Origin: Psammoneis japonica
Taxonomy: Eukaryota
NCBI GenBank assembly: GCA_008632985.1
Contig: QPGO01000270.1
Location: 1 to 64,000 of the forward strand
DNA length: 64,000 nt
Direction: 5' to 3'
Below the pieces are notes generated by a model, which made no database searches, had not been told where the DNA came from, and saw only the letters and a list, made by a program, of their open reading frames with translations. Both the position numbers and the translations under genes were made by a program. Shown piece by piece: positions 4,849 to 50,335 of this stretch. The stretch's first letter is position 1, and the number at the start of each line of letters is the position of its first letter.

Positions 4849-5142
4849 AGAGAAACACGTAGTTGTGTAAAGAAAATAAGGACACATGTATTGCTAACAA
4901 CAGAACAAATAGGACTTAATTCAGCATTAGTAGAGAAATACGCTTGATGCGTTTCGTAGCCTCTTGTGTTAAATGGGCGACACCAACTACAGCAAGGACG
5001 TGCAAGGTCAAAAACGAAACAAAGACTTGATGGATGACAAAGGAGGAAACCGATGACGGTGCAACAGCAAAGCCCTTACAATGGCTCTGAGACCAAGCAC
5101 CTGCACTGTGTTCAGAAAAAAAAACAGGTGCATGACACTGCA

Positions 5143-5903
5143 TCTTCCCCTTCCAATGATGATTTGATCAAGTGAGAATCATGTTGGTCAAGAATTCCAA
5201 ATTCAACTTTCAAAATGGAGCAGGAAGGAGAAAAAGAAAACCCAGGCACTGGGGGGAAAACCCTCAACCTCAAGTCCAACAGAGTGCCAAATGTTGACAT
5301 GTTCCATGATGCGTGGCTCTCATTGAACTGTGACAGTGCCATTGTTGGTGCGCGCACTTGGGCTGTCTGATGTGAACCACATGAGCTCTTGGCTCCAAGA
5401 ACTTGATGGGATTGACAATTGACTTGATTGGTGCTTGACCACCACGTGCAAAAATCACAGGATTGTTGCTTGGCATTGGCTCAAGAAAGGCTGGAACATG
5501 GATCAGAGCAAGCCTGGCAATGTTCTTGGAAAGCAGCCAGATCCATGATCACATCATGGAAAACATCACACTGGCAGAGTGTTGGAGAGTGCAGCTGCTC
5601 TTGGAATGACCTTGAGAGCATGGGAGCTGCACATTGCATGGTGTGCACAGCAGTGGCTTGTGCATCATCCACTGGTTTGCTTGCTTGCTCAACATTCTGT
5701 GGTGGAGGACAAACATGGGGCAATCTTTGTGATGACAATTTGATGCACTTGTCTGCCTGGTGACACATTGGCCCACTGAGGATTTCATGAGATGACAGGT
5801 GTGCTGTGTCAGTGCCAGCTCTCTGCAAAAGGAGTTGAACTTTTTCACCAGTGAGCTCTCTGCCATTGTCATGTGTCATGAATGCAGCAATTGGGGCAAG
5901 GAT
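5143..5903 (-). mobile_element. Ty3/Gypsy remnant, 3' part (integrase C-terminus plus PPT)
   Basis: THDNGRELTG integrase core, VDDAQATAVHTM; purine tract ggaaggggaaga (5143-5154, minus strand) followed by TG. Confidence 0.7.
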
Positions 5904-6179
5904 TGACAGGATTTGAACAGGATTTAGGTGCGCGCGAAATGTCGCGCGCTGTTCAGTTTACCGCGCACAGTTTTGTGTGCTTTAGTTCCGCGCGTTCGCG
6001 CGCGATGCAGTTTGCTTTCGAGCCACAAGGCTCACAAGAATAACAACAGTAGCCCGATTGTACCGACTTGCACGTCTTTCGGCTCCTGTGACGGTCTCTG
6101 AGCGGAAACTCATCTGCCATTTAGACAGCAGCAAGGAGTTGTTGTTTGAATTCTTGCCATTTGCCTTCAATTTCTGTCA
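5904..6179 (+). repeat. 5' LTR of Copia element 1
   Basis: tgacagg...ctgtca; direct repeat of 12681-12956. Confidence 0.95.
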
Positions 6180-7055
6180 GATTGACAGTCTTGCTCATTG
6201 TCAACCCATTGAGCAAGCCACCTCAATTCTGCGTGGACCTCCGTGTGTGTTCTACGTACATCGGCAAGTCTGCGCGCTTTCAATGCCAGGGCATCGGCAG
6301 GAAGTTAACGTCACCGTCAAGTCTCCTTGCCGCTGGATGTCTGGATTGATTGTGCTGCCTTTGATCGCTGAAGACATGCATTCAACGGTCACATCCAAGT
6401 CTGTCCTTGATCCACATCCCTTGACATGCCCATTCAACGGTTGACGGTCAAGAACCCTGCACATTCAAGGACCTCCGTCGCTGAAGACACACACACACAC
6501 ACATCTTCACGGCCAAGGACTTGGACCCACTCTTTGGACTGCGGCTTTGCCACCACTCTACAAGCACGCCGAGTCTGTTGCACCTGATCTACCCCGGACT
6601 GCTGGTGCTCTGCAGTTCTGCCAGGTCCACGAGGACGACTGTGAGAGCAAGCAGCCGTGATTGCAGCCTGCGTTGGGGCGAGGGTGTTTTCCCGCGTTTG
6701 TTCATTCGTCCACAGCGCCTGACGCCTGCGTCAACTGGCCAGCCTGATCGGGAAATCCAACCGACATAAAACAAGAACGGTTCGGGGGTCTTGTCCACCT
6801 CCAGTCAGCTTGCCTGCAGGGGTTTGCAACCCGCTGCTCTGCTCGCAAGCAACCCAAAGCGCCGCTGGCTGCGGGTTCGGACGTGCCGGCACAACTCTAC
6901 GGACCGGATAGGAAGTTTGGCACTTGACAACGAATGGGACAGCACAGCCCAGCGACTTCTGATTTTAAGGTGGTTCAAGACATCAAGTCAAGTCCATCTC
7001 AAGTCAAGTCTGTTCTCACCCAAGTTTCAAGTCTGCCTTCGCTTCCCAACAAGAA

Positions 7056-10000
7056 TTGCTTGTCCTGACACCACTTTTGTCTGCCATGGTTCTCACTCGT
7101 CAGCAACAAACCGATGGTTTCGAGCACGTTGTTGGAACCGTGCTTGTCCAAGGTGCTGGGAGCCCTCTTCGTTTGGCTTTGACCCAAGACGGCACGGACT
7201 CGCATCAAGAACTGTTCACGTTCATGCCGTCCCAAATCGACTCGCTTGAGTGCGACAACGGCACCAATGTGATCCCTTTGCCCCGCGGTTATAAGAACAT
7301 GTTAGCAGCTCCAATCAGTCTGCACATTGTCAAAGCACACGAAGGTCTTGACGTTGCCAATGACTCCTCGTTGTTCACGCATGACGAGTTCCTTGCCTGC
7401 CGCCTCAGCCCCGACCACATGTCTTCTGTGTCTGTCGGCAGCTCACCCCTCGCACCTCCGCATGTCACCAACCCGACCAAGGCACGCGACCCGGTGCGAG
7501 ACTTCAAGCGAGGCATCAAGCGTGACCCCACCGCTTTCACGGCTCTCAAATCCGACAAGCAGTGGCACACTTGGCACACCTCACTTGTGGCACAAGCCCG
7601 TGCCCAAGACGTCGAGTGCATTCTAGACTCGTCGTACAAACCGACCAGCCCCGAAGACAAACTGCTCTTTGCTGAACAGCAAAAGCACATGTTCTTCTCA
7701 CCGACAAGGGCAAGGCTCTCATTCGCGAAAATGTGGGGTCTTCTGATGCCCAGACCGTCTGCCGCGCCTTGTCTGAGCATGCGCTCGCCTCCACCCGCGC
7801 CTCCATCGAGTCCTCCACCTTGCTCACGTACCTTGCCACCGCACGTCTTGGTGATGGCACTTGGAAAGGTCCGACCCACGGGTTCATCCTTCATTGGCAA
7901 GATCAGTTGCACAAGTGCAAGGCACTCATCCCGGCCAGTGACCACTTCTCTGAAGGACAGAAGCGCGTCATGCTCGAGAATGCCGTGCACCCTGTCGAGG
8001 AACTCCGTGCTGTCAAGAACCAAGCTGATCAGCATCGTACGCAGAGTGGCAAGAGCCTCACATGCGATCAACACTGTGGCTTGCTCCTCTCCGCGGCGGC
8101 TCAATGCGACAGTGCGTTTCAACCCAAGACGACACCTCGAGCTCCCCGACGTGCCATGTGCACACACGACGTCTGCTCCGAGGAACCGTCCGACGATGTG
8201 TTCCACGACATTGACAGCGACATTGACGTCCTTCAGGCCAATGCTGCCCACACCCATGGTCCCAGCCTCACCGGTGACCAATGGAAACGTCTCCCTCCCG
8301 ACCACCAACGGATTTGGGATTCGTTGCCCCATTCCTCCAAGGCGATCATCCTTGAGCATTCTCGTCCGCCTCCCGCAACCCGCGAGCCAGCAACTGCCAT
8401 GAGTCCGTTACGGCCAACCTTCACGACCAACGCCTTGGGAGTGACGGTGATGTCAACTTGTCCAACACGACTCCTGCTGACTCTGGTGACCCCGCTCCAA
8501 ATGTGGACGCCACTTCAGATGATCCCATCCTGGTGCACCTCACCAAGCACAAGCCACTGCCACCCGGTGATCTGCAACGTCTGTTGTCTCCTAACCAAGC
8601 CCCCAATGCCAGTCGCACGGGGCCATCCGCCGCTCCCTCTGCTCCGCCAGCTCCCACCAATGACATGGAACTTAACGGCCGCACTTGCCGCCGCATTGAC
8701 AACCACAATGTCATCCACTCTGCCTCTGCTCATCGCTCCACACGCACTGGTGCTCCAGTCGATCGTGGGGCCAACGGCGGCATTGCTGGCAACGACGTTC
8801 GCGTCATTGCACGCACCTCTCGCCACGTCGACGTTCAGGGCATTGACGACCATCAATTGGTGGACATCCCCATTGTCACCACTGGTGCCGTCATTGAGAC
8901 CCAGCGTGGTCCCGTCATCGCCATCCTCCATCAGCACGCATGCACGGGAAAGGGCAAGACCATTCATTCCTGCGGCCAGCTCGAATGGCACAAACAGGAT
9001 GTCAAAGATCGCTCTGTAAAGGTGCCCAACGGCTTGCAATGTGTTGCCACTCCTGATGGCTGTGTCATCCCCATTGACATCAAGGGCGGCCTGCCTTGTG
9101 TTGCCATGCGACCTCACACTGATGCCGAATGGGACACCCTGCCCCATGTCATCCTCACCGGTGATGACACATGGGATCCTTCCGTCCTCGATCACTCTGT
9201 CACTGACAATGACCAGTGGTGCGACGCGATCTCTGACCCACAGGACGATCCCACTGCCAACCCATTTGACGAGTGCGGCAACCGCCGTCATCGTGTCGTT
9301 GTCAACGAGACCATCATGTCCGTTTCCTTGTCTGCCGATCACGCGTCCGCCCTCGATGATCACCTCATCCCGAACGACGACGTGTTCCACTGGTGTCACC
9401 CACATGCGATTGACCCCAAGGACGATGACGTTCCACCCCCGGAGCACACTGTGCAGCCCAAGGACCCCCCCTTCGTGTCTCTTCGGCCTCACTTTGGCTT
9501 CCCACCTGCCGATGCGGTCCATCGCACTTTTGACTGCACCACGCAGCACGTCCGCATGCCCGCCGGTGCACACCTTAGGAAGGCCTGCAAATCACCCAAC
9601 CCCACCCTTGATGTGCACCGCCGCAACGAGCCTGTCGCCACTGACACCGTTCATGCCGACACCCCGGCCGTCGACTCTGGTTGCACCAGCGCCCAACTGT
9701 TTGTTGGCACCGAGTCTGCCGTCACTGACGTCTGCGGCACCAAGACGGACAAAGAGTTTGTCAACACACTGGAGGATCAGATCCGTGAGCGTGGTGCCCC
9801 ATCCAAACTCATTGGCGACCGTGCTCAAGTTGAGATCAGCAACAAGGTGCTCGGGATTCTACGAGCCCTCTTCATCTCCAGCTGGCAAAGTGAGCCTCAC
9901 CAGCAACACCAAAACTTTGCCGAGCATCGACACCAGACTGTGACGCGCATGGCGAACACTGTCATGGATCGTTTTGGTTCGCCTGCCCACACATGGCTGC

Positions 10001-12733
10001 TGGCGCTCATGTGCGTGTGCTTCATGCTCAACCACACAGCGTCCCCACGTCTCCACTGGCGCACGCCCCTCGAGACTCTCACTGGCTCCACCCCGGACAT
10101 CAGCCCATTGCTTTGCTTTCACTGGTGGGAACCCATGTGCTTCCACCTCGATGACTCTGATTGGCCTTCCGAATCCCGTGAGTTGCGTGGACGCTTTGTT
10201 GGCATTGCTGAGCACGTCGGCCACCAGATGACCTTCAAGATTCTCTCTGACGAGACACAGAAGATCCTCTGCCGGTCCAACGTACGATCCGCTGCCACCG
10301 ATCCTGCCGTTCGAAACCTGCGTCTTGATCCTCCTGATGGGGAGCCACCTGAACCCATCATCAAATCTCGCCATGACGACAACCCCGTCGATTCTCCTGA
10401 TGGGGAGATCAGGACACCCAAGATGCCAGTTTTTGATCCGCAAGACATCATCGGACGCACCTTCCTCATGCAGCCACAAGAGGATGGACAACGCCACAGA
10501 GCTCGCATCGTCAAGGCCGTCGAAGACCACGAATGGAAAGTGAACGGCAATCCCGAGCTCACTGAGTTCGTCTGCTCTGTCAACAACGACGAATGCGAGG
10601 AAGTCCTTGCCTGCAACGACATCATGAATCACATTGAGCAAGAAGACGAAGACACCACTGTTTGGAAATTTCGACGCATCGTGTCACACGAAGGACCACT
10701 GAAGCCTCATGACCCAACCTGGAAAGGCTCAAGCTACAACATCATGCTTGAACGGGAAAGTGGGGAGATCACTTCCGAGCCTCTTGCCATCATCGCCAAG
10801 GACGACCCCGTCACCTGCGCCATCTATGCACGAGAGAACGGACTTCTCGACACTGATGGCTGGAAGCGGTTCCGCACCATCGCGAGGCCAGAAGAAGCCA
10901 TTTCGCATGGCCAACCAAGCCAAGCTTTGCTCCTTCCGCACTGCACCTCGCTACAAGCACGGATGCGAAATTCCCCGGAACTGCAAACACGCCATGTCAC
11001 CAGACGGAACGCAATGGCAACCGCAAATGGGGAGACGCAACTAATCTCGAGATGGACCAACTCGAGGAATACGAAGTCTTCCATGACTGCGGGCCCTTCG
11101 AGCCTTCCACTCCTCCTGTGGGACACAAGAAGATCCGAGTGCACCTGGTGCACGACGTGAAACACGACGGTCGCCACAAGGCACGACTCGCAGCCGATGG
11201 GCACCTCACGGACGTGCCCATCGACAGTGTCTGCTCCGGAGCAGTCTCCCTCCGTGGCCTTCGGCTGATGATTTTCCTGGCCAAACTCAACGAGTTGGAG
11301 ACATGGGCCACCGACATTGGCAATGCCTGCCTTGAAGCCACCACCAAGGAGAAGCTCTACATTGCAGCCGGACCCGAATTTGGCAAACTTGAAGGACACA
11401 TCCTTGTCATCCACAAGGCCCTGCATGGACTGCGCAGCTCCGGTCTCCGCTGGCACGAGCGTTTCACCAACTGCCTGCGAGCTGAAGGCTTCTCCCCCTG
11501 CCGCGCCGAACCCGACATTTGGATGCGCAGGAACGGCGACCACTGTGAACACATTGCCGTTCATGTGGATGACCTCGCCATTGCCACGAAGGACCCTCAA
11601 TCTTTCATCGACACTCTCACGGAAAAGTGCAAGTTCAAGCTCAAGGGTGCGGGACCCATTGAGTTCCATCTGGGTTGCGACTTTTCCCGGGATCCCGACG
11701 GCACCTTGTGTCTGTCTCCACGCAAGTGCATCGAGCGCATGGTCGACAGCTGCACCCGACTGTTTGGGGAGAAACCTGCCACCAACGCCCTGTCACCACT
11801 GGAGAAGGGTGACCACCCCGAGCTGGACACTTCCGAACTGCTGGGGCCCAATGGCATTCACAAGTTCCAGTCTCTTGTTGGTTCACTCCAATGGGCAGTG
11901 TCCCTTGGTCGAATTGACATTGCCACGGCCGTCATGTCACTCTCTAGCTTCCAAGCTGCGCCCCGTCAAGGCCACTTGGATCGTGCCAAACGCGTCTGTG
12001 GGTGCCTCTCCAAGATGCGACACGGCGCTCTCCGCGTTCACACGGAAGAGCCCGACCATTTGGATCTCCCTGCTCCGGCCCATGAATGGATGCATTCCGT
12101 GTGCGGCGAAGCAGAAGAGATGATCCCGAAGGATGCTCCACCGCCCCTTGGCAAGTTCGTCACTGCCACCCACTGTGTCGATGCAAACTTGCACCATTGC
12201 ATGCTCACCGGACGCTCTGTCATGGGAATGCTCCACTTCCTCAACAAATTCCGGCTGATTGGTTCTCTAAGAAGCAAGCCACCATGGAGACTGCGACCTG
12301 CGGGTCTGAATTTGTTGCCGCAAGGACTTGTGTCGAGCAGATTGTCGACCTGCGCATCACCCTGCGCTGCCTTGGCGTCCCGATCTGTGGTGTCAGTTGC
12401 ATGTTCGGTGACAACAAGTCGGTTGTAGACAGTGCCACCATCCCGCACTCCAAGTTACACAAGCGACACACCGCACTGTCGTTCCACCGTGTGCGTGAGG
12501 CAATTGCCTCTGGTTGCCTTGAGCTCCACTTCATCGAAGGCTCCCGCAACCCTGCTGACATTCTCAGCAAGCATTGGGGTCACTCCCAAATCTGGGACCT
12601 TCTCCGCCCCCTCATGTTCTGGAACTTCATTCCATCCGAAGTCGAATCTGTTTCTGTGGCTCCTCAAGCAAACTGGGGAGTGACAGGATTTGAACAGGAT
12701 TTGGGTGCACGCGAAATGTCGCGCGCTGTTTAG
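7056..12733 (+). pseudogene. Copia gag-pol (frameshifted, hypermutated)
   Basis: FKRGIKRDP gag; protease VDRGANGG; integrase LIGDRAQVE and SEPHQQHQNFAE; RT HVDD (from YVDD); RNase H ETATCGSEF and NPADILSK. Confidence 0.93.
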
Positions 12734-12956
12734 TTTGCCACGCACAGTTTTGTGTGCTTTGGTTCTGCGCGTTCGCGCGCAATGCAGTTTGCTTTCGAGC
12801 CACAAGGCTCACAAGAATGATGACAGCAGCCCGATTGTGCCGACTTGCACGTCTTTCGGCTCCTGTGACGGTCTCTGAGCGGAGACTCATCTGCTGTTTA
12901 GACACCAGTGAGGAGTTGTTGTTTGAATTCTTGCCATTTGCCTTCAATTTCTGTCA
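12681..12956 (+). repeat. 3' LTR of Copia element 1
   Basis: Direct repeat of 5904-6179, preceded by the PPT. Confidence 0.95.
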
Positions 12957-12961
12957 AGGAT

Positions 12962-14950
12962 GACAAGACATCTGGCAATTTTGGAGCTGTTGAGAGATGC
13001 CGTGCTGCACGGTCTTGTTCTCAATGCAAGCAAGTTCAGCAACATTTGATGCTGCTGTGTCAACACATTTCAATGCATCAAACTCAATCTCTTGACCCAA
13101 ACATTCAATTTTCTGAGGTCCAACCAAATCAACAGCAACTTCACACCATCACAGCAGAGATGACATTTTGCATTCAGGCAAGCCCCCACAGCAGCAAGGG
13201 CCCACCAAAGCTTTCAAATGCTGACAACCAGCATGTGAAAAGTCTTGACAATGTCATTGCAATGCAGGATTTCAAAACATGTGCTGACAGCAGAGAGCTC
13301 AGTCAATGCACTGGGCATGTCCCAAAAGTGCAATGGCGCCACTGCATGATGTTAGACAACAAATCAGCACGGGAATGCAAATCTTCCACAGGGTTGGCGG
13401 ATCACCCAGTCAATGACAAAAGCAAATCACAGGGGTTGCTGATTCACACATTTGACAATGAAATGATCCATGCACTGCCTTTGCATGTTTTGCAGTTCCC
13501 TGTCAACAATTTGATGTGCTCTTTGAGTTGCTGAGTGTTTGCATGTGACTTGCTGACTGGCGTCCTGTCAAGAGCTGGGCAGTTTGGGAGAGTTTCAAAC
13601 ATGTCTCAGGATTGTTGACAAAAGAAGGTCAGAAGTTGGGGGGTTCTTCATGTTGACATGAAAAACAAGATGCAGCACTTGGCTTGTCAAGTTCATGGTG
13701 TCCTTTTTGTGTGCTGGCGGTGCTCTCACATTGACCACCTTGAAGTTTGTTGGCTTGCCTTTGTTTGGAGGAGCACACTGTCCTTCCACAGGGAGAAAAA
13801 CTCAATCCAGCACATGCAGTTGAGAAAAGCAGTCAGCAAGTGCACCATCCACACTCTGAGGTTGGAGCAAAATTTTCCAAAAAATGGTTGTTGCCTTCTG
13901 AGTGCACATTGCACAACAATGGTCAACAGCTCCCTTTCAGCAGTCAAGCAGCTCTGCTGCCCAGCACTGAGTTTGTGTGTGAGGCTGCCAGGCAGTTGGC
14001 TTTCCCTCTTGTTGCATCATTGCTGCACCCATCAGGCTTGTTGTGTGATTGGGACAGGTCAAAAAGATGTCATTCAACATCAGATTCTTCACCTTGTCAA
14101 AAGCCCTTTGACACTTGGGTGTCCACTCCAGCTTCCTCTTACCTGCCATCTTTCTGAGGGGAGCAAGAACATGAGTTGTGCATGTCCACACATTGTGGCA
14201 ACAAGTTGTTGCACTGGCAAACAACTGCAAATGCATCATGATGATCTGAGGCCGCAGCTGCACTCACAGCACAGCTTCCACTTGTTTCTTTCACAGCATG
14301 ACTCCCATTGAGCTGGCCACATGAACAAGTTTCAGAAGGCATGAGAAGAACAGAATCTCAGCCCATGCAATGGCATTGACTTTAGACCCTTTTTTGCCAT
14401 TTCAACAACACAAATGACTGGAGCACTTCCATCAGTCAATGCCATGGAAGAAATGTGCATGGCAACAGAAAAGAGCTTGCCCTTGGAGGCCAGTTGTGAG
14501 CCAAATGAGACTCTTGTTGTTGCTGATGGGCTGGTCTTCTTGTGCTGCATTGCAGCCTGTGACAAGCATTTTCATCATTGATGCTGATGACACAAAGTGC
14601 GCAAAATGCTGCAGTCCTCTTCATGTCATTCAATTTTCCACAAGGTCAAAAAAAGCAGGCTTTCATGGTCACTGAATGCCACAGCCATTTTGGCTGTCAG
14701 CTGGCTTGAGTTTTGTCCATTCATTTTGCTTGCAACTGGCCATTGACATGAGGGGACTGCATTTGGCAAAGGTGTCAAGCCCCAAGATGATGGGATTGAT
14801 TCAACAAAATCAAAGGTTGTGTGTGTTGTGCACCAAAATGAAAAAAACAAACAAACAAATGTGTTGGGAACAGACAGAGAGCACGCATCATGCCCACTCT
14901 GGCTGGCCACCAGCAGAGTGAGCCACGAACACAGCAAATGGCATTTTTCA
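12962..14950 (-). mobile_element. Ty3/Gypsy remnant, RT/RNase H/integrase N-terminal part, continuous with 5143-5903
   Basis: HVLAPLRKMAGKRKLEWTPKCQRAFDKVK; TAERELLTIV; NVAELACIENKT...SCHP leads toward the HDNG motif across the Copia insertion; upstream limit approximate. Confidence 0.75.
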
Positions 14951-15188
14951 GCAGGTGAGTTGGCAGATGGATGCAGTCAGGAATTCTCAACTCAATGAAT
15001 CAAAGGAGGTTGGTGAGACAAATTCGGAGAAAGGTGGTGCTGAAGATGATGATGCTGGCAGAGTCACAACAAATCACAGGCAAAACAACCAGTTTGGTGA
15101 GAGGGGGGAAACAGCAAAAGAAGTGAGTGGGTTGGCTGGCTCCCAAACAACAGTTGGTTCCAACAGCATCAGCGTGTGCTGAATCTTT

Positions 15189-15550
15189 TCAAGGGAAACT
15201 TGTTGTCTCCCAATCCATCACTGGAATCAGCAACAGTTGCTTCAGCACAATCGCTTTGGAGTCTCTGTGTGGCAGGCCACTGGGCTGCAAGCAAATCCAG
15301 TGCAAGCAGCCCAGTCTTCTCTGGGGAGACTTGTTGTCACCCAATCCAAGCCCAGGAATCAGCAACAGATTTTCTGGCACAGTTGCTTTGGAGCCTCTGC
15401 ATGGCAAGCCACCAGATTGCAAGCAAATTCAGTGCAAGCAGCCCAGTTTTTTCAAGGGAGACTTGTTGTCACCCAATCCAAGACCTGGTGTTAGCTGCAG
15501 TTGTTCCAACACAGTTGCTTTGGAGCCTCTGCATGGGCCACCAGACTGCA
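15189..15550. repeat. Tandem repeat, ~130-bp unit x ~2.8
   Basis: 'acttgttgtc.cccaatcca' at ~15199, 15329 and 15461. Confidence 0.85.
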
Positions 15551-16995
15551 ATGCTGCAGCAGTCCTGAGCTTGATGTTGCCTGACAATGGGCCCACATGT
15601 TGTGCACTTGTGATGCAGACATGCTCAAGGACATCCTCCATGAGTTGAGTTGATGGTTGCATCACACAGCGGCCATGGTGAAGCACGCACCTCTGAGGAG
15701 CTTTCCACCTGGACATGGCAAAGCATGGCATCACCCAGGCGGGACTTGCCAACATGCTGGAGCATCATTGGCAAGGTTGATGGAAAGACACAAAGTGACC
15801 CATGACAGCTGTGATTCCAGCACCTGCTTTCATCAAGTTCAAGCTGCCAGTGTTCGGGACTCCACTGTTGCAACACACACACCACAGAAGCAATGAAAAA
15901 AGAAGACCAGCAATTGCGCTGGTGAGCACAGCCAGAGAAACAAAGCTGGCTGAATTTGCAAGAACAACCCAGAGGACAATTGGCAGGCCAAAGAGATCAC
16001 AAACTGTCCAGTGGCGGCACAGGGCATGACATGGTGGCCAAACACACATTTGAGCCCAGCGCTTGCTTGTTTGAAGGGAAGAGGAGGGTCAATGAACAGC
16101 CCTCTCAGGTGGAAGGGAGCACTGTCAATGCACCATCTTAAGAAACACAAGGACGCCAAGATGTGCACCCTTCAATGGCTGCACCCAGATGTCGATCCTG
16201 GCTGTCATCAAACAATTGAATGGTCTGCAAAGCACCCCAGCTGCTTGTGCAACAACTGTCTTTAACTTGTGCCACTGGCAAAAAACATTGCAGCAAATAA
16301 AGCTGACAAGACTATGACAAAGCAGCCAAAAGTTTGGTGTTCTTTGTGCGGAGCCGCTTTGAAAGGCGGCAGCGGGCACCTTCTGCTCTGCTTTTTTTTC
16401 CGAACAAGCAGCTGACAGGAAAACTGGGCTGACTTTGGGCTGGAGCAACTTTTGACCAGGGTTGTCAACAAAAGCTTTGTGTCAAATGCCACACTCGTGC
16501 AGTGGCATGTTGTCACAAGTTGCACCACATCTGTCTGCTGGATGCAAGCAGAGCATCATGGTGTCCCGTGCTTTTTTTGCAAGATTTTGCACTGTGCTTT
16601 TCACTTTCTGGGAGATCTGGTGCTTTTGCCTCTTACAATTTAAAACGGAAAAGTCACACATCACCCATGAGGCGGATGGCATGGCCACAGCTGGGATCCC
16701 GGAGATGACCAGTGGATTTTGACTGCCTTGGCGAAGCGAAGCGTCTGAGGCAAGCCGAGTCGAATGACTCAATCCTCGTTTGAAATGCTGGAGGGATGGA
16801 AAATGACCCTTTTCTAGTCATTTTGGCATTTGCAACGAAATGACCGTCACCGTGGTCATTTTATTGACATTTCATTCTTCCCTCCACAAGAAAAGCCCAC
16901 AAGCTTGAGCTATCTATCACACTTCCTTTCTTTCGTTGTCGTCTTTCGAACGAATACTCTCAGAACCTCGTCTTTAGAGCCTCATCATAATATAG

Positions 16996-18918
16996 ATGCG
17001 AAAAGCAATGGCTGTAAAGTGTGCGGCAAGTTCAAGATCGCGCTGGGTCGCCCTGGTCCTGTTGACTCTTTTGTTTCAGGCATGTACGCGAATGCTCAAG
17101 TGGCACGAGCTCATCTTGAATGTTCGCTATTTTCACATTTTTCATCACGACGAAACCAGTGTGACTCAAGAATACAATGATACAGAGTACTGCGCTACAA
17201 AGGGCTCACTACATCAAATGTGCTTGGACATGATTGCTTATTCAAGTCCGCCCGGTTCGCCCTCTTTTACAAAGACATTACGTGTCTTGCACAGCGCAAC
17301 ACATTTCCAAATTGATTTAGGAGCAGCCTGGCTGTTTAATGACAATGAATCAAACATTGCAACAATGCTGAAAGGGTTCGGTCTGCACGCCATCAAAGAT
17401 CAGAACAAAAAGACGACGACTACTGACCCCTTTCTTCACGTCGAATCGGTCGTTTCAAAATCTATATGCGAGTCCCGTCAGGATTGCAGCCGTGTACCAA
17501 GGATTTTGGTTCAAACCGAGCAGCTCATTGAAAGAAAGGATGAGTTCCATGACAAACTCAAGTTGTGTCACGAGTCGGAGCTTTGCATTATTTGGGAGTT
17601 TTCGGATTTCAATTACCGCATTTTAAAAGACATCAAGCTTGCCGATTCGGTGGTGCTCATACCCATCATGATTCAGTCGAGGCTGGGAGACGCGGAAATA
17701 ATGCGTCCGCTTCAGAATCGATCTATAGACGTATCTTTCTTTGCGACAATGACGGAACGTCGGCAGCCTTTACGGGGTTTGATGAATGAAACCGGCTTGG
17801 AAACGCGGATTTCCCAAACGGACGATACGTCCGCCATGAAAAAGTCATATCAAGATTCCAAGGTTTGTTTAATCATGCACGCCTACAATGATCTTTCGTC
17901 GGGAGAGACGCATCGGCTTTCGGAGATGGGACGCTTTGGTTGCATTCCGGTTCTAGAAACGTGGGCGGATACCATGTTTGTTGAAAACTACAAGAGATGC
18001 GGCGACGTAGTATTCGCAGGAAAAGATGATATTTTGAATGCAAGTCGAGCCGCTGTCAAAAAAGTCAGTCACGAAGACCCCGAAGAGATGGATAAGTCAC
18101 TCCGAAAGCGAGTTGAATGGTGGCGTACTGGAATTGATTGGGCAAGGGTGTTGAACACAGCCTTTCGTGCAGCTCCAGGTCATACCAAGGCGCGGTCAAC
18201 GAAAGCCCCGTTTGTGACGTTTATCATTCCGACCAAGTTTAGAGATACATTGAATCAAACAATCGCATCTCTCACACGTCAAACCAGTAACAGTTGGGAG
18301 GCAATACTGGGAATCGACGTGCAAAACATTGATTCCGACCATGTACTCGAGTCCTTTGGATACGACCCAAGATTATCCTACATGTTGGTGGGCTCGGTCG
18401 GCACCAGTCGTGGTAAAAAGCTGAATGGTGCCGGTGAGATTCGAAACAAAATGGTAAGGAAAGCCAAGGGAGAATGGGTGGCCTTTTTGGATGATGATGA
18501 TACGGTCAGTCCACATTACGTCGAATGGCTACAAAACTCTGTATTAAGGGACGAACAGATTTTCAACAAAAAAGTCGATTTGGTCTTGTTTCGAATGAAA
18601 TGTGTTCGAAGCACTACCGACATTGACATTTTACCACCTTGGCAGCACAGAAATCGTGCTAAACTCGATTGGGTGGGGATTAGCTTTGCCGTTCGAAAGC
18701 GTTTATTTACGTCCAAGAAATTGGCGTTTGAAACAAGCAATGCCGAAGACTACGATTTCTTAAAAGCCGCCTATCAGAAGCAACAAAAGGGCATTATCCA
18801 ACGCGTTAAAATCGCCGACTGCGTTGCTTATTTTGTCAAGGAAAACCCACCACCGTCGTTGGAACAGATACGCTATCAACCTGAATTCTGCAATTTGACG
18901 GACCTAATTGTTGAGTAA
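16996..18918 (+). CDS. Glycosyltransferase with C-terminal GT2 (GT-A) domain and N-terminal second GT-like domain
   Basis: N-terminal hydrophobic anchor; VTFIIPT...TIASL...GAGEIRN...GEWVAFLDDDD...AEDYDF; intact 640-aa ORF with normal TA content. Confidence 0.8.
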   Translation: MRKAMAVKCAASSRSRWVALVLLTLLFQACTRMLKWHELILNVRYFHIFHHDETSVTQEYNDTEYCATKGSLHQMCLDMIAYSSPPGSPSFTKTLRVLHSATHFQIDLGAAWLFNDNESNIATMLKGFGLHAIKDQNKKTTTTDPFLHVESVVSKSICESRQDCSRVPRILVQTEQLIERKDEFHDKLKLCHESELCIIWEFSDFNYRILKDIKLADSVVLIPIMIQSRLGDAEIMRPLQNRSIDVSFFATMTERRQPLRGLMNETGLETRISQTDDTSAMKKSYQDSKVCLIMHAYNDLSSGETHRLSEMGRFGCIPVLETWADTMFVENYKRCGDVVFAGKDDILNASRAAVKKVSHEDPEEMDKSLRKRVEWWRTGIDWARVLNTAFRAAPGHTKARSTKAPFVTFIIPTKFRDTLNQTIASLTRQTSNSWEAILGIDVQNIDSDHVLESFGYDPRLSYMLVGSVGTSRGKKLNGAGEIRNKMVRKAKGEWVAFLDDDDTVSPHYVEWLQNSVLRDEQIFNKKVDLVLFRMKCVRSTTDIDILPPWQHRNRAKLDWVGISFAVRKRLFTSKKLAFETSNAEDYDFLKAAYQKQQKGIIQRVKIADCVAYFVKENPPPSLEQIRYQPEFCNLTDLIVE

Positions 18919-24153: not shown

Positions 24154-24549
24154 GGCATGTTCCAGCTCTGGGTGGGACCTCATGCTGCTGGACTGTGACA
24201 ATTGTTTTTTGTCATCCATTGCATGTTTTGCACGTGCATGTTTCCACGTCTTCCATTGTAAAAAATGCTCCACACTGCCTGTTTTGCAAAGCCAAAGGCT
24301 TTCTGTTTTCTGCATTTGTGACAATGAAAATGCACTGGGCACATGTTCTTGAATGTCTGAAGAACACACCCGGCCATGCTGTCAACAATGTGCTTCAAGT
24401 GTGGAGGAGGAGATGCGTTCGCAAAATTGCCTCTTTTTCTGTTGGCGATCATCCATGCTTTCATTGCTCAACAATTTTGGCATGGAGCACTCACGCAGAA
24501 TTCTGCAGCCCAATGTCACAAAAAGTCCCACCTGGGGCTGGAACCTGTC
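24154..24549 (+). mobile_element. MITE, older diverged subfamily
   Basis: Degenerate TIRs ggcatgttccag...ctggaacctgtc; 4-bp TSD AGTG on both sides. Confidence 0.8.
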
Positions 24550-25227
24550 AGTGCCTCACCACCAAAGACATGCCTGACCCCACATTGCTGGTCAGGGCAA
24601 GTGGAGAGAAAATGGTGCCTGATGTTCTTGTTTTTGTGTGCAATCGGGCATTGACTGCAAACAATTTTTGCACTGAAAAAAAACAAAGACTGCAAATGTC
24701 CTCATTCAAATGCCATGGCAGCTCCAGGACAAACAAGGAGATGACACCCTTTGATGTGAGCAGACTGTTTTTGGGGGCAATCAGAAGATGAATTTTTCAG
24801 AATTTTCTTTGCATTGAGGCATGAAAAAGAATGGATGTCATCTTTCTTGGCATTTTTCTCAGTTTCTGGCCATTTCAAAACAGCTGTTGGTGAGAGAGAC
24901 CATGGTGCATCACAGTTGGCTGGTGCAAAAAGATTGACAACAACCAGCTGTCCATTGAGATCCATCATGGTGCAACAATGTCTCATCCATGCTTTTGAAA
25001 ATCAACAAAATTGAGCGGGGGCATGTGTGCTGTCTCAAAAGGGGTGCTCAAAACAACTCTGCTCTGGCTGTTTTTGTGTTGCTGTTTGTTGCAACAGACC
25101 ACCAACACTCACTTTGCAGTCAACAGATGGCTGTGACAATGCTCCATCCAGCCACTTTGTTTCTCAAATGGCTTTGACAAGCTTTTTGCAATTTTGCAAT
25201 TTGTCACTTCAACAAATGCTCCAAGGT

Positions 25228-31149: not shown

Positions 31150-32900
31150 TTTCAGCTCATTCTTGCACACATGAACTCGCCTGCCAAGGGCAACGCAAGT
31201 GGGAAGCTTTTAGTCTTGCCCTCTCCTGCCTGGTTGTTTTTGAACCTCAGGGCTCACCCCCTCAAACTCCAACATCTTTGCCATGCATCCATCCTCCAGA
31301 TGCCTTGTGCATGCAGACAGGTTGTTGTCATCCACTTCTTTTGATTCCAGAGTTGTCTTGTCCTCCTCATGGGCTGCGTGTTCAACAAGTTGCGCTGGAG
31401 CAGAGACTTCTCGGTCATGCAATGTGGAGCTGGGATGTTTTTCCAAGAGCAGGGGTTGTTGTGAAACTGCCAGTCTTTGAACAAATCTTTCAACAACGTG
31501 GAAACCATCATTTTCTTGTTGTCCTTTTTCTCAGACACAGCCCTGGCTGCTGAATTGCATGTCAAAGTTCTTGCAGCTGCTGGAAGAAAGTTTGGTGCTG
31601 CAGCAGGTGTGGTTGCGGCAGCAGCACTGGGTGTGGCGGTGGCAGCACTGGGTTTGGTTGCAACTGGTGGAGCTTGTGCAGGTGAGGGCACTCATGGTCT
31701 TGGGCTCTTGTTGCTCTCCTCTGTGTTGCTGTTTCTCTGGGGTGCTGCCTTGATGCTCTGGCTCCCAGCAGAGTTTTCAATGGTGACAGCTTGTTTTGTG
31801 ATGCCTGGAGTTCTTGTTGTTGCTCCTGCATTTTGCTGTTGTTGCTGGTGCAGGGTCATTTGCAATGAGGCAAGAGTGCAGTGATCAACTCTTTTTCTTC
31901 TACCAGCATTGCCACCATTTGCCTTGGTTCCAACAGAACATTTGACTGTTGATTGACAACCGCCATCACTTGGGCCTGTCCTCCACCTGGAGCAACTTGG
32001 GCCATTTCTGGATTGCATTTTTGGAAGTCTTTCATGATTGTGGTGGACCACTCATCAAGAACAGCCTCTGGAGAAATCCCTGGGAATCAGGCATTGGAAA
32101 TGCTTGCACTTCTGGCAGCAGTGCGAAGTTTCGTTGCCACTGCATTGTGGTCCTTGCACTCTTGGGTCACTCGGACATGATGCATCATCAATGGTGCAAG
32201 TCCCGTCCAAAGGATTTGGTGCAGCCTGACACGCTCCAGCTCTGGGTGGGACCTCGTGCTGCTGAACTGTGACATCAACAGTTTTTTGGATCGCGCCGCA
32301 TGTCGCGCATGTAGATGGCTGTGTGTGATGTTCTACGAAATTGTTTCATGCTTCATGTTTTGCAGAGCCAAAGGCTTTCTATTTTCAACATTTGTGACAA
32401 TGAGAGTGTGCTGGGCACATTCTTTTGTGTCTGTAGAACACACCCATGCAAACTGTTGTTGATGCACTGCAAGTGTGAAGGAGGAGATGTGTTCATAAAA
32501 TTGCCTCTTTTTCTGTTGGTGATCATTCACATTTTCATTGCTCAACAAATTTGCTGTGGAGCTCGCACGCAGAATTCTTCATGCCCAATGTCACACAGAG
32601 TCCCACCTGGGATTGGAACCCGTTGCCCGCTCTGCTTGTCTTTAAATCCCTGCACTGAAATGACAAATGTTTTCATCAGCAATTCCTCCACCTGTGCAGC
32701 AACATGCATTCCCAGGCTCTCGAGTCGGGGGACCCTTGTGTTGACATCAACGTCATCATGTCGACAAAGGGCCTCAGCAGCTCTGGGTCCCAGCACAAAC
32801 AAAGTGCAGTCTGCACGGGAATCCAACAACATGCCAGTGGTGTGCCCTGAACGACAACAAACACACCAACGGCATCCACCTCACTCGATGTTTCAGTGGC
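31150..32900 (-). mobile_element. Decayed tyrosine-recombinase (Crypton-like) element, interrupted by a MITE
   Basis: CRSGHTTGMLLDSR resembles the YR G-H/W...Y box with Tyr replaced; downstream APLMMHH...KLRTAAR...VLDEWSTTIMKDF; recalled similarity only. Confidence 0.45.
32228..32624 (+). mobile_element. MITE, older diverged subfamily
   Basis: gacacgctccag...ttggaacccgtt; TSD GCCT/GCCC; body aligns with the 24154 copy. Confidence 0.75.
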
Positions 32901-33806
32901 TGTGTGCTCTCTGTTTAGACAAGTCTGCCGCCAGATGAAGGACCATGTCAAAGCAAACTGCGCGGCACAATCCTCATCTGGTTTCCTTTTCTTTCCTTGT
33001 CTGGGAAAATTCAGGGCTGAATTTTGTCTTGTGCGTCGTGCGCAGAAGCTGCACCCCACGCATGAAAACTGCAGAAACATCGCCACACAGACTCTGGTGC
33101 AAATTCCATTTTCGCGAGGTTGTCCACACGGAAATGGGCACAGTGCACAGGGAAAAAGGAGGGAATCAGACCATTGAGCACACACAAATAAAAGATGAGA
33201 GCGCATTCAGTGCAAGAGGTGGCGAGAAAACCAGAGGCAACAGGAATCATTCGGCCCTGAGAGTCATCACGTAGAAATTGTGTGGAAGAGCACCAAAAAT
33301 CATTGTTGTCAGTCTGTCCATCAGTCCACACATGAACATCAACTTCTCGGGAAATCAATTGAAATTCTGTCTGATCGACGGTATTTTGATTCACATGGTG
33401 AAGGCCAACACCGTCGATCAGACAGCATTTCAATTCAGTTCCCGAAAAGTTGTTAGCTCTAATCACTCTCTCGCATGACATTGTGTACATTTCTACACGA
33501 TTTTGTGTTTTTCCTTATGTAAAATATTAATTATGACTCATGCGACATTTTCGAATGATTCCTGTTGAGACCTGCAGTGGATTCTGGCCTGTTCCAGCTC
33601 CAGGTGATGCGCACGGGTTCGATTCTATGGGCACAACATCCAGTAGAAACCGTTCCATAATCAACTTTATATAGAATTGAAAGAATCAATAAATTTGGTG
33701 TTCGCCGAAACTTGACTAGTTCGACTGATTGTTTTTGCCCACTACTGCACGCTGAACAAGGTTGTGGTGGAAACGTTGTTTCATTATCTGAGCCTGTGGT
33801 TTCATC

Positions 33807-34112
33807 GACGCGTTCCAGCCCTAGTAGGTGGGAGCTCGTAGTACTGACGTGTGACACAAATAATTTTTATCATCCGTCGTATGTTTCGCACGTACATTTC
33901 TACGTGTGACATTATAAAAAAATTGTCCAGACTCGCTGTTTTGCGAAGCCCCAGACGTTTTATATAAACAAATTTATAGAAACAAATGTGCACCAGTTAC
34001 ATTCTTAAATGTCTGAAGAATGTTGTTACCGTGTAATTTTAATACAGAGCTTGCACGTAGAATTCTACGGGCCCAATGTCACACGGATTCCCACCTGCGT
34101 CTGGAACGCGTC
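33807..34112 (+). mobile_element. MITE, internally deleted, least mutated copy, no TSD
   Basis: Perfect TIRs GACGCGTTCCAG...CTGGAACGCGTC; flanks CATC/GGTG do not match. Confidence 0.9.
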
Positions 34113-35025: not shown

Positions 35026-35297
35026 GACGCGTTCCAGCCCTGGGTGGGAGCTCGTAGCACTGACGTGTGACACAAATAATTTTTGTCATCCATCGTGTGA
35101 ATGTCTGAAGAGGCAACTGGCCAAGTAAAAAATGATGTGCTTCAATCATGTGCGAGTTTGTGCGTTCGCAAAATTGCCTCATTTTCTGTTGGCGAACATT
35201 GACACTTAAATTGCCGTGTGATTTTACTGCGGAGCTCGCACGTAGAATTCTGCGGGCTCAATGTCACATGGATTCCCACCTGCGTCTGGAACGCGTC
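35026..35297 (+). mobile_element. MITE, internally deleted
   Basis: Perfect 12-bp TIRs; TSD TCCA. Confidence 0.92.
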
Positions 35298-37046
35298 TCC
35301 AGTGCCATGCAGTTCTTTTGCCAAAAAAGACACTTGTTGTTGTGCTCAAATGACCAATCCCATCTTGTTGCAGCGCTGCCAAACTCAACGCACGAGGCAG
35401 CCAAAACACATCATTTTGGCACAGAGAACATTGTCCAGCTTGAAAGCTTGTGTGCTGAGCTGGTTGGGACAAACTAAATGCACAACCCACAGATGCTGCT
35501 GGCTGATGCAAGAACCACTGTCAAATGCTGTGCTCCCAGAGTTTTGGTTGAGGAATGGTCTGCTGGCAAATGGGTGGAGAAACAATGATGATGACAAACA
35601 ATGCAGCATTTTGACTTCCATGAGTGCAGACACATGTGTTTTGTGATCAGCACCTTCTCTGTCTCCAGACAACAGAAGAAAGCTCACAAACACAGAGCAA
35701 ACCACAGACGCAAACAAAAAGGGAATCCTGTGTAAAATGCCATGAGATTGGCCATGAGAGCCCAGCATGGGCAATTGTTTCCCGAGAAAGGTGTGCAAGT
35801 TTTGCCAACTCATGCTGTTTGTCTGAGTTGCATCTGGAACTGTTCAATTCCAGATTGGGGCAATCCACCAGAGCTGTGTTTGTCCACTCTAGAGCTGGTG
35901 CAACCTGCCCCCGCATGCAGAGTTCTGCCAACAAGTCGCTGCGCAGCAGTGTGTGGTTGTTTTTGACAACTTCTCTCTTGACTTCATGACTGCATGAGCA
36001 GCTCCAATCAACAATGTGGAGCAGTTGTTGTGTGTTTTGAGATGGAAATGACAGCATGCTGTGCCGCTCTTTTTCTGAAATGGACCTGCCACAGTGAAAG
36101 AATTTTTCAGGTGTTTTCGTGCATCGCAGAAAGCCACGCACAAGGACCCCCAGACATGGAAGAAACCTCACAGAGCAGCTTGGATGTGGTGGATTGAGCA
36201 GCATTGTTTGCAAGCTGAGAGATTTTAGACCAGGTGGTCTGAGCAGACTGAGAAGTGGGTGCAAAAGCTCTCCACTTGAAAGTTCTCACTGAAGACACCC
36301 CACATGGAGTCTGTCACGCTTGCATTGGACAAAAGAGAAACAACACATGCAGACTCAACAAAATGTCATGGTTCAATGGCATCCTTTTTGTGCTCATTGG
36401 TCTGAAATTGCTGCTGCTGTGGGCGCCCATGCTGTTTCTGCAATGCTTCGTTGTCGCTCCGCAACAACACATCGCAACACTTGCCCCCCAATCTAGCACT
36501 GTTTAATTCCAAATTTGTTCCAATGCAGAACTGTGGACTTCCAGATTGTCCCAGTCTAGAACCACACAACAATTCTGGATTATCCCAATCTTGAACAATT
36601 TTGGAATTGTGTTGGTCCAATCTAGAATTGCGCACACCACGTTCTGCCTTGCAGAATAAAGAGACAAATTATGCATGACCAAACCTGTCCATTGTGACCA
36701 CTGAAATACTCTATGAAGAGTCATTTGTTAGAAAAAAGACTTTTTCAGGTCATTTCGTGGATGTTACTGGAAATGTATTACAGTACGATCGTGTCTATTG
36801 CCCACGACAGGAAATGACAGTTTGGGGCTTTCGCGCGCGTTGGTTCACAATTTTTCGACTTTCAACTGATGCTTTGGACATTTCTGGACGATGATATTCC
36901 CGCAAATCATACCGTATGAATAGTCCTGTGCACGACCCAACGCCTCACTCCCCCGCAAAAAAAAAAAAAAAACATCACTCTCTTGACTTCCTCACAATTT
37001 GCCGTTTGGGATAAAGTGAACGCTCCCCCATCCCTCCCTCTTGAAT

Positions 37047-45400: not shown

Positions 45401-46100
45401 GCAGCAAAATTGTTCAGTGATTGACACATCAATGATTGCCAACAGAACAAGGGGCAATTTTGCAAATGCACAAACTCATCTGTGATTTAAGAAATGTCAT
45501 TTTTTGCTCATCTTGGTGCACTCTCATTGTGCTGAACAACACAGCTGGCACATTGATGTTCCCGCAAATGTGTTGAAGAATGACCAGTCTTGGCTTTCGC
45601 AAAACAGGGAGTGTGGAACAATTCTGTGAAAGAAAACATGCAAAAATGTGTGTGCAAAAATGCAAAAGAAAATGAACAACAGCTGTGTCACACATCAGCA
45701 CCGGCACACCAAGCTCTCACCTCTCGTCCAGCACACACACCACTTCAACAATGGACTTGAGCCCACCAGGCAGGATCATTGAGATCAACTGGGGACTTGA
45801 ACAACACAAAATGATCTTTGCAAAGTTCTTTGCTTGTTTGTTCTGGGCAAACAAGATGGAAAGAACAGCTTTCGGCTGACGTGCTTGGTCAGGACAATTC
45901 TTTGAACTTGCTGGAAATGTCAGAGAGAGGCTTCGTGGAAGCAAGGAATGAGATGGATTTTGGGGGAGCACAAATTTGCTGTGCCCAACAGCACCAAGTG
46001 ACAGTTGATGATGTGGTTGTTGTGCTGTTGGATGCTCGAATTGTGAGACGAGATAGAACAGATCTCTCCAAGTGGCAGCCAGAGCCACTCTCTCAGTTAT
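39500..46100. repeat. Old, heavily decayed repeat/pseudogene block depleted of both TpA and CpG
   Basis: TG/CA-saturated sequence; no family confidently recognised. Confidence 0.6.
45327..45725 (-). mobile_element. Diverged MITE relative, reverse orientation
   Basis: ctccagatgcatgtgggaatccgtgtgaca... matches the reverse complement of the MITE 3' end; tgtgtcacacatcagcac matches the 5' part. Confidence 0.7.
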
Positions 46101-49048: not shown

Positions 49049-50335
49049 CTATTCTGTCTTTTTCTTCTTTGCTGCCGAGGCCTCAGCTCCGGCAGCCATT
49101 GCAGCTTTCGCCGATAACTTCTTCTTTTTTCGCTTCGACACTGGCACAAGACAAGGGTTGTTGAGTAAGTCGGGACGAACCATGGTCGGATTTCGGCGCA
49201 GCAGCTCAAAGGAATTGTTGAGATTGTTCAAGCTCCGGTAGTTGATAGAAGTCTTGTAAGACTACCTCGCAAATTCATGTCGTCTCTATACCAGCTATAA
49301 GTGACTCCTGCTGTGTCAAGAAATGGAGGAAACCTCTCTTTTGCCTCAAACGATTCCAGGACTTGCGGGTTTGAATGAACCAAATCGCGGATAACGGGTT
49401 CCCATTGAAAACCCAGACGCAGGGCCGAAAAGATTGGGTTTGAGCCTTTTGTTATCGTCTTGTTCAACATATTTTTCGGGCAGTACTGCATGAAGGTTTT
49501 CCACTTTGTCTCAAGATCCTCGCACTCTGTCAGACAATATAAAACGCAGCAAGTCACAGAATTTGTGTCACACAATTTTTCGTGGTCATATGGTACGTTC
49601 CAATACCTCCCTCCCTTTCTCTTCTTCTGTAGACATTTCGCCATAACTTTGAGATAACGGTAGAACAGCATGAATCTCTCGTGATTCAGGTTTTTGAACG
49701 AAATATATACAAGCGGTTCAGCATCATTCTCTTCTTCGTCGTCGTCGTCTTCGAAAAAGCTTTCCGTAAATATAGAATCTAGCTCTTCATCCTCCCGCAC
49801 ACGCTTGAGCGCATACATGAGAACTTTTGCCGGAAGGGGCTGTTCGCCAGAGAAATTTTGTGCGACTACCCGCTCCACGGCTGGTGGGCACGCATTAAGT
49901 GTTGTCTTGATTTGCTCACTTTCTGGATGGGCATTCTCAATAAAAAAATTGATTAGAGAATCAGCATGTCCGTCGCATGGCTCGAGTGCCATCTTCCAAT
50001 CCCGGTCTGCTCTGACACGAAGCATCATCTCCAAAATACGCGGCGAAATTTTTGCCGGTTCAGGGTGCATTGACATCATCCAATGAAATGCACTCCAACC
50101 ATGATCAGCTTCTCGGAAATCCAGTGCATCTGGATTCAGCTCCAGCAGCCGCCAGACAACATTTGCAGGCACACCCGGATGGAGGATTGCGCAATGGAGA
50201 GGATGTGCTCCACTCAATGCACAATCTTCCATGGTGCCAGCTGCGTCAAAGTCATCCGTCAATGCCATTTCCGGCACTCGATTTAAGTCTTGCAAGAACT
50301 CTTTCCAGTGGATGTTGACTTGATGGAAAGGTTCT
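49049..50335 (-). pseudogene. 3' part of a host gene (ankyrin-like / LRRNP-type C-terminus) split by Copia element 2
   Basis: HPLHCAI, GWSAFHW, NNSFELLRRNP; reading frame continues across the TSD into 58553+; frameshift near 49270. Confidence 0.75.

Follow-up and report, generated by a model that had tools for sequence, protein, structure and literature searches.

Context-specific mutation in repeated DNA

The repeat-induced point mutation (RIP) known from Neurospora and other ascomycetes, which is tied to the sexual cycle and to RID/DIM-2, kills transposons by transitions at one dinucleotide, making TA from CA or TG. Methylated transposons elsewhere lose CpG to TpG or CpA, and in methylated genomes it is standard practice to exclude CpG sites before the divergence of long terminal repeats (LTRs) is used as what is the standard clock for retrotransposon insertions. 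The case dealt with here is a 7053-bp LTR retrotransposon, Copia-1, at 5904-12956 of a 64,000-nucleotide stretch (the window) from the diatom Psammoneis japonica (assembly GCA_008632985.1, contig QPGO01000270.1, positions 1 to 64,000). Very probably it was hit after insertion by a fast process converting TpA to TpG or CpA, together with a slower decay of CpG.

The likeness to RIP lies in repeat-restricted transitions at one dinucleotide, in transposon killing and in the pairs of states involved. However, RIP creates TA and lowers GC content, whereas here TA is depleted, GC content is raised and at 21 conserved columns no His or Cys has become Tyr. TA is destroyed, in the direction opposite to RIP, and the chemistry cannot be cytosine deamination. 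The features of CpG decay are also present, with CG going to TG or CA and CG depletion growing with repeat age: four sites of the Copia-1 LTR pair are CG against CA or TG, and observed/expected CG falls to 0.08-0.4 in old repeats. But CpG accounts for just 4 of the 19 differing LTR bases, with 13 being at TpA and so untouched by the standard correction. APOBEC and ADAR editing of retroelements, to judge from the available part of one account (PMC4866542), likewise hypermutates LTR elements in specific contexts by a deaminase-type reaction. There it is the cDNA or RNA that is edited, on one strand, and the edits are common to both LTRs, while here the LTRs differ, both strands are affected and so are sequences that are not retroelements.

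The chlorarachniophyte (Rhizaria) Bigelowiella natans provides a much closer parallel. In its mutation-accumulation lines the new mutations of two integrated viral regions were A>G/T>C in 230 of 231 cases, each of these at TpA, and adenine deamination to hypoxanthine, directed to silenced chromatin, was proposed (Mettrop et al., 10.64898/2026.01.13.699255, here and below as far as the accessible portion of that preprint goes). TpA-poor coding sequences there are enriched for reverse-transcriptase and DDE domains. As in B. natans, the change here consists almost wholly of A>G/T>C at TpA, with TpG or CpA as the product (13 of the 19 LTR-pair bases fit TA going to TG or CA), and is confined to particular regions, namely repeats, with TpA depletion and CpA/TpG enrichment as its long-term footprint. 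The differences are that giant-virus and virophage DNA was involved there and mutation was observed directly, whereas the present case concerns LTR retrotransposons and other repeats of a diatom and comparative evidence only. Depletion is also deeper, with observed/expected TA of 0.01-0.1 as against 0.45 in the B. natans viral region, and is accompanied by CpG decay. The words diatom, LTR, retrotransposon and stramenopile are absent from the accessible portion of the preprint. A full-text literature search gave no description of TpA-erasing mutation in diatoms; a mutation-accumulation paper on Phaeodactylum (PMC6604790) reports, in its available part, CG as the most mutable context, and the word 'transpos' does not occur in that part.

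The LTR pair of Copia-1

A direct-repeat search of 5000-14000 yielded one direct repeat pair, the LTRs of Copia-1. These are 276 bp each (5904-6179 and 12681-12956), are gapless both in a MAFFT alignment and by direct comparison, and each begins with TGACAGG and ends with CTGTCA, i.e. has TG..CA termini. Immediately outside both is AGGAT (5899-5903 and 12957-12961). The match of this 5-bp target-site duplication supports a single insertion event for Copia-1, and the differences between its LTRs post-date insertion, barring ectopic gene conversion. The layout, with the basis of each assignment, is:

5078-5903, no strand assigned: older host repeat invaded by Copia-1, left part, without TA from 5078 until 5925 (TA positions, 1-kb profile)
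5899-5903, + strand: target-site duplication AGGAT, left copy (same 5 bases outside both LTRs)
5904-6179, + strand: 5′ LTR, less mutated of the two, with 7 TA and 22 CG (repeat search, alignment)
6180-12680, + strand: internal region, dead copy (frame broken between three open reading frames)
7419-12698, + strand: stretch resembling copia polyproteins, a protease/integrase-like part and then reverse transcriptase (tblastn of 56 environmental relatives)
11115-11744, + strand: RVT_2 (PF07727) reverse-transcriptase domain (Pfam, E=1.6e-23, in the frame 11052-12428)
12675-12680, + strand: purine run GGGGAG abutting the 3′ LTR, a possible polypurine-tract remnant (from the sequence)
12681-12956, + strand: 3′ LTR, the more mutated copy, with 2 TA and 18 CG (repeat search, alignment)
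12957-12961, + strand: target-site duplication AGGAT, right copy (same 5 bases outside both LTRs)
12962-16300, no strand assigned: older host repeat, right part, with observed/expected TA 0.01-0.03 and CG 0.08-0.13 over 13001-16000 (1-kb profile)

Between the LTRs 19 of 276 bases differ, 18 by transition and one by transversion. By dinucleotide these fall into 16 sites: seven TA singles (five TA/TG, two TA/CA), four CG singles (three CG/CA, one CG/TG), three adjacent double differences in which the 5′ LTR always has CA and the 3′ LTR always TG, one AA/AG transition and one G/C transversion. An earlier note, made from the letters alone, had tallied 7 TA, 4 CG, 3 CA/TG and 2 others, and the repeated alignment returns identical numbers. 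Its further claim, that the changes arose in situ, is supported by the TA/CG concentration and the matching 5-bp duplication, with the same reservation about ectopic gene conversion. At the differing sites TA stands in the 5′ LTR in six of seven cases, and CG in four of four. The differences are scattered along LTR positions 23-230 and do not form one tract.

The raw impression of concentration at TA and CG is too strong, because the TA, CG and CA/TG classes are jointly transitions within pyrimidine-purine steps and such steps make up 52% of LTR positions. Of the 18 transitions, 17 are within them (binomial p=1.4e-4). When 18 random transitions and one transversion were simulated 100,000 times, at least seven TA-type singles arose in 3.9% of trials and at least three CA/TG doublets in 0.045%, but both features jointly in none. 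With the background taken from the 132 positions outside pyrimidine-purine steps, where there is one transition, 0.43 TA-type changes are expected and seven are observed (Poisson p=3.8e-7).

Direction of the change

As judged from related sequences, the change runs from TA to TG or CA, the reverse of fungal RIP. Where 80% or more of 120 database homologs agree on Tyr, Copia-1 retains it at 2 of 20 columns, with 12 Cys (TGY), five His (CAY) and one Phe in the others; its remaining conserved residues are unchanged at 326 of 359, His at 18/18 and Cys at 3/3 among them (Fisher p=1.6e-15). Comparison with 56 independent environmental polyproteins over 7419-12698 gives Tyr kept at 3 of 24 columns (otherwise 15 TGY, five CAY and one TTC, for Phe), while other conserved residues in Copia-1 are kept at 449 of 486. 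Nor does the lineage appear to be intrinsically poor in TA. Eighty environmental relatives, being the best 80 of 509 matches and biased toward intact copies since one of the two search patterns includes Tyr, have a median observed/expected TA of 0.72 and 51.5 TA/kb, as against 6.0/kb in Copia-1 (42 TA in 7053 bp) and 4.7/kb in a second element of the window, Copia-2. Copia-1 retains CG at 67.8/kb, and its GC content is above that of its surroundings.

The composition of the window bears on the same issue. In its oldest repeat blocks observed/expected TA is 0.01-0.1 and TG+CA 1.7-2.1; for the old repeats adjoining Copia-1 the figures are 0.01-0.06 and 1.8-1.9. In the 83 TA-poor 500-bp bins (observed/expected TA <0.2) the values are 0.07 for TA, 1.62 for CA, 1.68 for TG and 0.51 for CG, with every other dinucleotide within 0.08 of its value in gene-like bins. 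Given TA depletion together with TG+CA excess in old repeats, a TA-creating process cannot be the cause.

Other copies of the element are also informative. Contig pieces of one public run were aligned on Copia-1 at an identity of at least 82%; 14,221 match the element and, though this depth is not a copy number, the family is highly repeated. Among the best-supported 40 of 438 variable places, one of which (6044) is within an LTR, 15 are TG or CA here and TA in 16-89% of the aligned depth, and just one is TA here and TG in others. A further 10 of those 40 are CA or TG here and CG elsewhere, and four are CG here and CA elsewhere.

The TAs that survive have a context of their own. In bins with observed/expected TA <0.2 (n=172), 13 of 172 have a 5′ A as against 201 of 755 in gene-like bins, and 13 of 172 have a 3′ T as against 213 of 755. 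Either ATA and TAT are erased most completely, or the surviving TAs are newly made. The LTR events are without ATA/TAT preference (6/13, a hand count).

The CA/TG doublets

The earlier note regarded the CA versus TG sites as independent hits on an ancestral TA or CG. The doublet tests favor TA. A CG ancestor predicts 0.4-0.8 doublets in the Copia-1 pair, where three are observed, while a TA ancestor, with 11 ancestral TA and losses of 4/11 and 9/11, predicts 3.3 double hits. For the Copia-2 doublets a single CG class was tried and rejected, being incompatible with the mix of 16 CG kept in both LTRs, eight lost in one and 14 visible doublets (chi-square 13-24, p≤3e-4). The favored interpretation is that each doublet was once a TA, which was converted in one LTR on one strand and, independently, in the other LTR on the opposite strand.

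Other repeats and the edges of the TA-poor domains

All 11 repeat pairs of at least 88% identity within the window show the same TA and CG difference classes. The repeats involved are a tandem repeat, Copia-1, Copia-2 and a family of ~400 bp (copies at 33803, 35098, 53732, 60748 and 63194). Features relevant here in addition to Copia-1 are:

1234-1810, + strand: tandem repeat with units of ~190 bp, whose copies differ mainly by TA versus TG or CA (pair comparison)
50337-50806, - strand: 3′ LTR of Copia-2, a second Ty1/copia element (repeat pair, Pfam domains)
58077-58547, - strand: 5′ LTR of Copia-2 (repeat pair, difference classes)

The tandem repeat, whose 19 differing bases comprise 10 TA-type singles, six in three CA/TG doublets and three transversions, shows the process at work outside retroelements. 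Copia-2, with domains RVT_2, gag_pre-integrs and zf-CCHC, is a saturated stage of the same process. Its LTRs have one or two TA left each, and their 44 differing bases are made up of 14 CA/TG doublets, eight CG singles, one TA single and seven other transitions, doublets being the main class (28 of the 44 bases). The Tyr test is weak for this element, its homologs being ~22% identical, and gave Tyr kept at 0 of 9 columns (three His, one Cys) versus 65 of 168 for other residues (p=0.027).

The ~400-bp family has at least eight copies: 53732-54128, 60748-61132, 63194-63593, 35098-35300, 33803-34023, 24159-24552, 32227-32623 and 45331-45701 (inverted). One copy is inside Copia-2, and where the young copies (88-93% identical) differ, they do so mostly at TA and CG sites. 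Polarization using three copies of this family was tried and set aside, as doublets confound the single-base classes and an unrooted tree has no direction under parallel hits.

The loss of TpA is confined to repeat DNA, with sharp edges. In a 1-kb profile observed/expected TA is 0.01-0.25 in repeat blocks and 0.45-0.84 in gene-like stretches, the transition taking place within tens to hundreds of bases. Copia-1 is nested in an older repeat, both halves of which (5078-5903 and 12962 to ~16300) are virtually without TA and have little CG. At the left edge TA occurs every ~20-30 bases up to 4988, and then only at 5077 before the 5′ LTR TA at 5925. Observed/expected CG is 0.8-0.9 in Copia-1 versus 0.08-0.4 in older repeat blocks; sites with CG versus CA or TG number four in the Copia-1 pair and eight in the Copia-2 pair. 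At Copia-2, TA is scarce already from ~380 bp outside the LTR (49960-50336), inside the N-terminal part of an open reading frame on the - strand (49228-50268), which may represent spreading of the mutator into flanking DNA. By eye, the first ~100 residues of that frame have no Tyr and many His and Cys.

Sequence comparison indicates that the TA-erasing process exists beyond this assembly. L032, from the set of 80 metagenome loci, has an observed/expected TA of 0.31 and has replaced Tyr by Cys or His at 8 of 16 conserved columns, the database protein P0070 keeps Tyr at 4 of 16 and has six Cys and four His, and a further protein, P0020, has the same signature. These three are environmental relatives ~62-66% identical.

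Relative rates and LTR dating

If TA and CG are the ancestral states, losses in the 3′ LTR amount to 9 of ~11 TA (eight to TG, one to CA) and 4 of 22 CG, and those in the 5′ LTR to 4 of 11 TA (all to CA) and no CG. The counts from the Copia-1 LTR pair give, in hits per target per branch:

TA: ~0.59
CG: ~0.09
other base: ~0.005

In these relative terms TA mutates ~6-7 times as fast as CG per target, and loss of a TA dinucleotide is ~100 times as fast as the change of an ordinary base.

Since TA and CG mutate far faster than other bases, raw LTR divergence overstates age 5-8 fold. The Jukes-Cantor divergence of the Copia-1 pair is 0.072 over 276 positions and 0.0096 over the 210 that remain without TA, CG and doublet sites, the latter figure representing two differences with a Poisson 95% range of 0.0012-0.034. 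In Copia-2 the corresponding values are 0.100 and, without TA and CG sites, 0.018. The earlier note had anticipated that LTR dating would overestimate the age of the element, as it does by 7.5-fold in Copia-1 and by 5.5-fold in Copia-2. Saturation of the TA sites, of which Copia-2 has lost nearly all, keeps the bias from being a constant factor.

Damage to the two LTRs is unequal, with 4 hits in the 5′ LTR versus 13 in the 3′ LTR on 33 TA and CG targets each (p=0.023). Residual TA density is ~25/kb in the 5′ LTR, ~11/kb in 6180-7000 and ~4/kb beyond. The TG:CA polarity of TA losses is 0:4 in the 5′ LTR and 8:1 in the 3′ LTR (Fisher 0.007), and in the coding part there are 15 Cys to five His, a sense-strand ratio of A>G to T>C among Tyr codons of 15:5. 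Opposite strand polarity of the LTRs was considered as a feature in its own right and not retained: doublets are visible only where polarity differs, the singles give p=0.29, and Copia-2 shows 9:5. The weaker damage to the 5′ LTR and the 15:5 sense-strand excess are weak hints about targeting.

Identity and state of the element

Copia-1 has the attributes of Ty1/copia, with direct TG..CA LTRs flanked by a 5-bp duplication, and an RVT_2 domain. Its reading frame is interrupted between the open reading frames 7056-8402, 8458-11160 and 11052-12428, and the copy is therefore dead. The catalytic YVDD of its reverse transcriptase has become HVDD (the frame reads AVHVDD, with residue 171 being His, CAT). 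The 900-residue product of the frame 8458-11160 (P0001) is 44% identical over 800 residues to residues 323-1108 of L028, an intact environmental polyprotein of 1714 residues (L028:1-5142). RVT_2 in L028 is at 1176-1396, downstream of the P0001-like part, and the order of the coding parts as deduced for Copia-1 fits Ty1/copia. No Pfam integrase (rve) domain was found in 7056-11160 even at E≤5, nor in L028 at E≤0.001. The region similar between Copia-1 and L028 is well conserved between the two, and integrase-like motifs in it were noticed by eye only.

Twenty-four open reading frames of at least 100 codons, in all six frames, overlap Copia-1 (5800-13100). Such long six-frame openness arises because TA loss deletes TAA and TAG stops, and frame length in 5800-13100 is therefore no evidence of coding. 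For a host gene nearby, 16996-18918, the best named relatives are in pennate diatoms, Seminavis robusta (51%) and Nitzschia inconspicua (43%), and one relative of the reverse transcriptase carries the name Cylindrotheca.

Alternative explanations

A RIP-like C-to-T process (CpA to TpA, as in Neurospora) would have the 5′ LTR as the mutated copy, with its TAs gained from CA or TG. The state pairs would be the same, and six of seven TA states being in one LTR is compatible with it, but with Copia-1 and every repeat block depleted of TA rather than enriched (observed/expected 0.01-0.25), and intact relatives having ~8 times more TA, it is barely credible. Conserved Tyr has become Cys or His, whereas conserved His (18/18) and Cys (3/3) have never become Tyr; Copia-1 is GC-richer than its surroundings; and the 5′ LTR would have to have been hit while the 3′ LTR alone lost four CG. 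Ordinary neutral transitions plus CpG decay, with the TA excess due to chance, are very improbable even though pyrimidine-purine steps are so abundant: the joint occurrence of at least seven TA singles and at least three doublets in none of the 100,000 simulations, the Poisson value given above, and repetition of the pattern in Copia-2, the tandem repeat, the 400-bp family and the Tyr codons all stand against it. Similarly improbable is ADAR- or APOBEC-like editing of RNA or cDNA during retrotransposition in place of mutation of integrated DNA. The known preference of ADAR for a 5′ U and the 15:5 sense-strand A>G excess among Copia-1 Tyr codons would accord with it, as would the occurrence of such editing in animals (PMC4866542, in its available part). 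But both LTRs share templates, so that edits would be common to both, yet the LTRs differ; both strands have been hit (Cys and His; TG and CA); the tandem repeat at 1234-1810 and old non-LTR blocks share the signature; and the TA-poor state reaches ~380 bp past the Copia-2 LTR.

Some long-read chemistries give systematic consensus errors at methylated motifs, so that modified bases had to be considered as the source of an artefact of assembly or base calling, with G being called, for instance, for a modified A at TpA. Given that independent metagenome contigs and proteins share the replacement of Tyr by Cys or His (L032 8/16, P0070 10/16), such an artefact too is scarcely believable. In addition 61% of sampled 31-letter words of the window are found in contigs of the public run, and over the TA-free flanks (5400-5930 and 12953-13400) those contigs differ at 0-1 letters, though for both comparisons the run may be the assembly's own sample. 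Import of the LTR differences by ectopic gene conversion from other, differently mutated family copies is improbable as a general account, though it may apply to individual sites. Its donors would need to have undergone the same TA- and CG-specific mutation, so that it alters the clock argument and not the process; furthermore, no single tract holds the differences, which extend across LTR positions 23-230, and the state of the 3′ LTR agrees with that of the equally TA-poor adjoining interior.

Several points weigh against the preferred explanation, that TpA was rapidly converted in place after insertion. With 19 differences and 52% coverage by the relevant steps, the Copia-1 pair alone is modest evidence, chance sufficing for the TA singles in 3.9% of simulations. 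Gene conversion has many potential partners (the 14,221 matching contig pieces), in a family polymorphic at exactly these site classes. LTR polarity rests on the interior, domain composition and doublet statistics. That the two LTRs have opposite strand polarity is in part a matter of ascertainment, and Copia-2 (9:5) does not show the same. The fold overestimate of age is imprecise, because the clean divergence rests on two differences, and the enzyme, the targeting signal and the defense role are candidates.

A possible mechanism

The change of TpA to TpG or CpA takes place in DNA, on both strands and after insertion, and is faster than, and layered on, CpG decay. The sequence of events that would account for this locus is that a member of a highly repeated Ty1/copia family in a pennate-diatom genome, now a dead copy, inserted once into an already decayed repeat. 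The fast process, an A:T to G:C transition at the A of either strand, would then have stripped ~85-90% of its TA, while CpG went more slowly to TpG or CpA, probably by deamination of 5-methylcytosine; the LTR pair would have captured both processes under way. By analogy with the B. natans proposal, an enzyme targeted to repeat chromatin in the silenced state might deaminate adenine, and the resulting hypoxanthine would be read as G; this chemistry has somewhat less than an even chance of being right. Thymine oxidation at TpA, or a repair defect in heterochromatin, may be the route instead. The 3:1 sense-strand A>G excess in Copia-1 is a hint that the target strand becomes exposed through transcription or R-loops.

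By the same analogy the TA-erasing process could serve as a genome defense. A broader and more speculative proposal, which we regard as rather doubtful, is that diatoms carry an active repeat-directed adenine-editing defense that is the same system as that of Bigelowiella, and that this is an old DNA-editing immunity across the stramenopiles, alveolates and Rhizaria (SAR). Such a defense would rewrite TpA to TpG or CpA in silenced transposon chromatin, extend a few hundred bases into neighboring DNA, and mirror fungal RIP with a different chemistry.

Implications

LTR dating in this genome would be off by 5-8 fold unless TA is masked as well as CG. LTR pairs constitute a natural experiment, from which the in-place relative rates of a very unusual A:T to G:C process at TpA can be read, loss being fastest for TA, next fastest for CG and slower for everything else. 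The process had, on the strength of the accessible portion of the source, had a single earlier description, in a 2026 preprint about an alga that is unrelated (10.64898/2026.01.13.699255). What this locus adds is in-place relative rates, the assignment of doublets to a TA ancestor and a measured 5-8 fold dating bias. The combination of a diatom with independent environmental contigs suggests that the process is widespread among marine protists. For the repeats themselves its consequences are substantial: it shapes their composition, kills transposons via replacement of Tyr by Cys or His, and erases stop codons, which fills all six frames of dead elements with long, spurious open reading frames.

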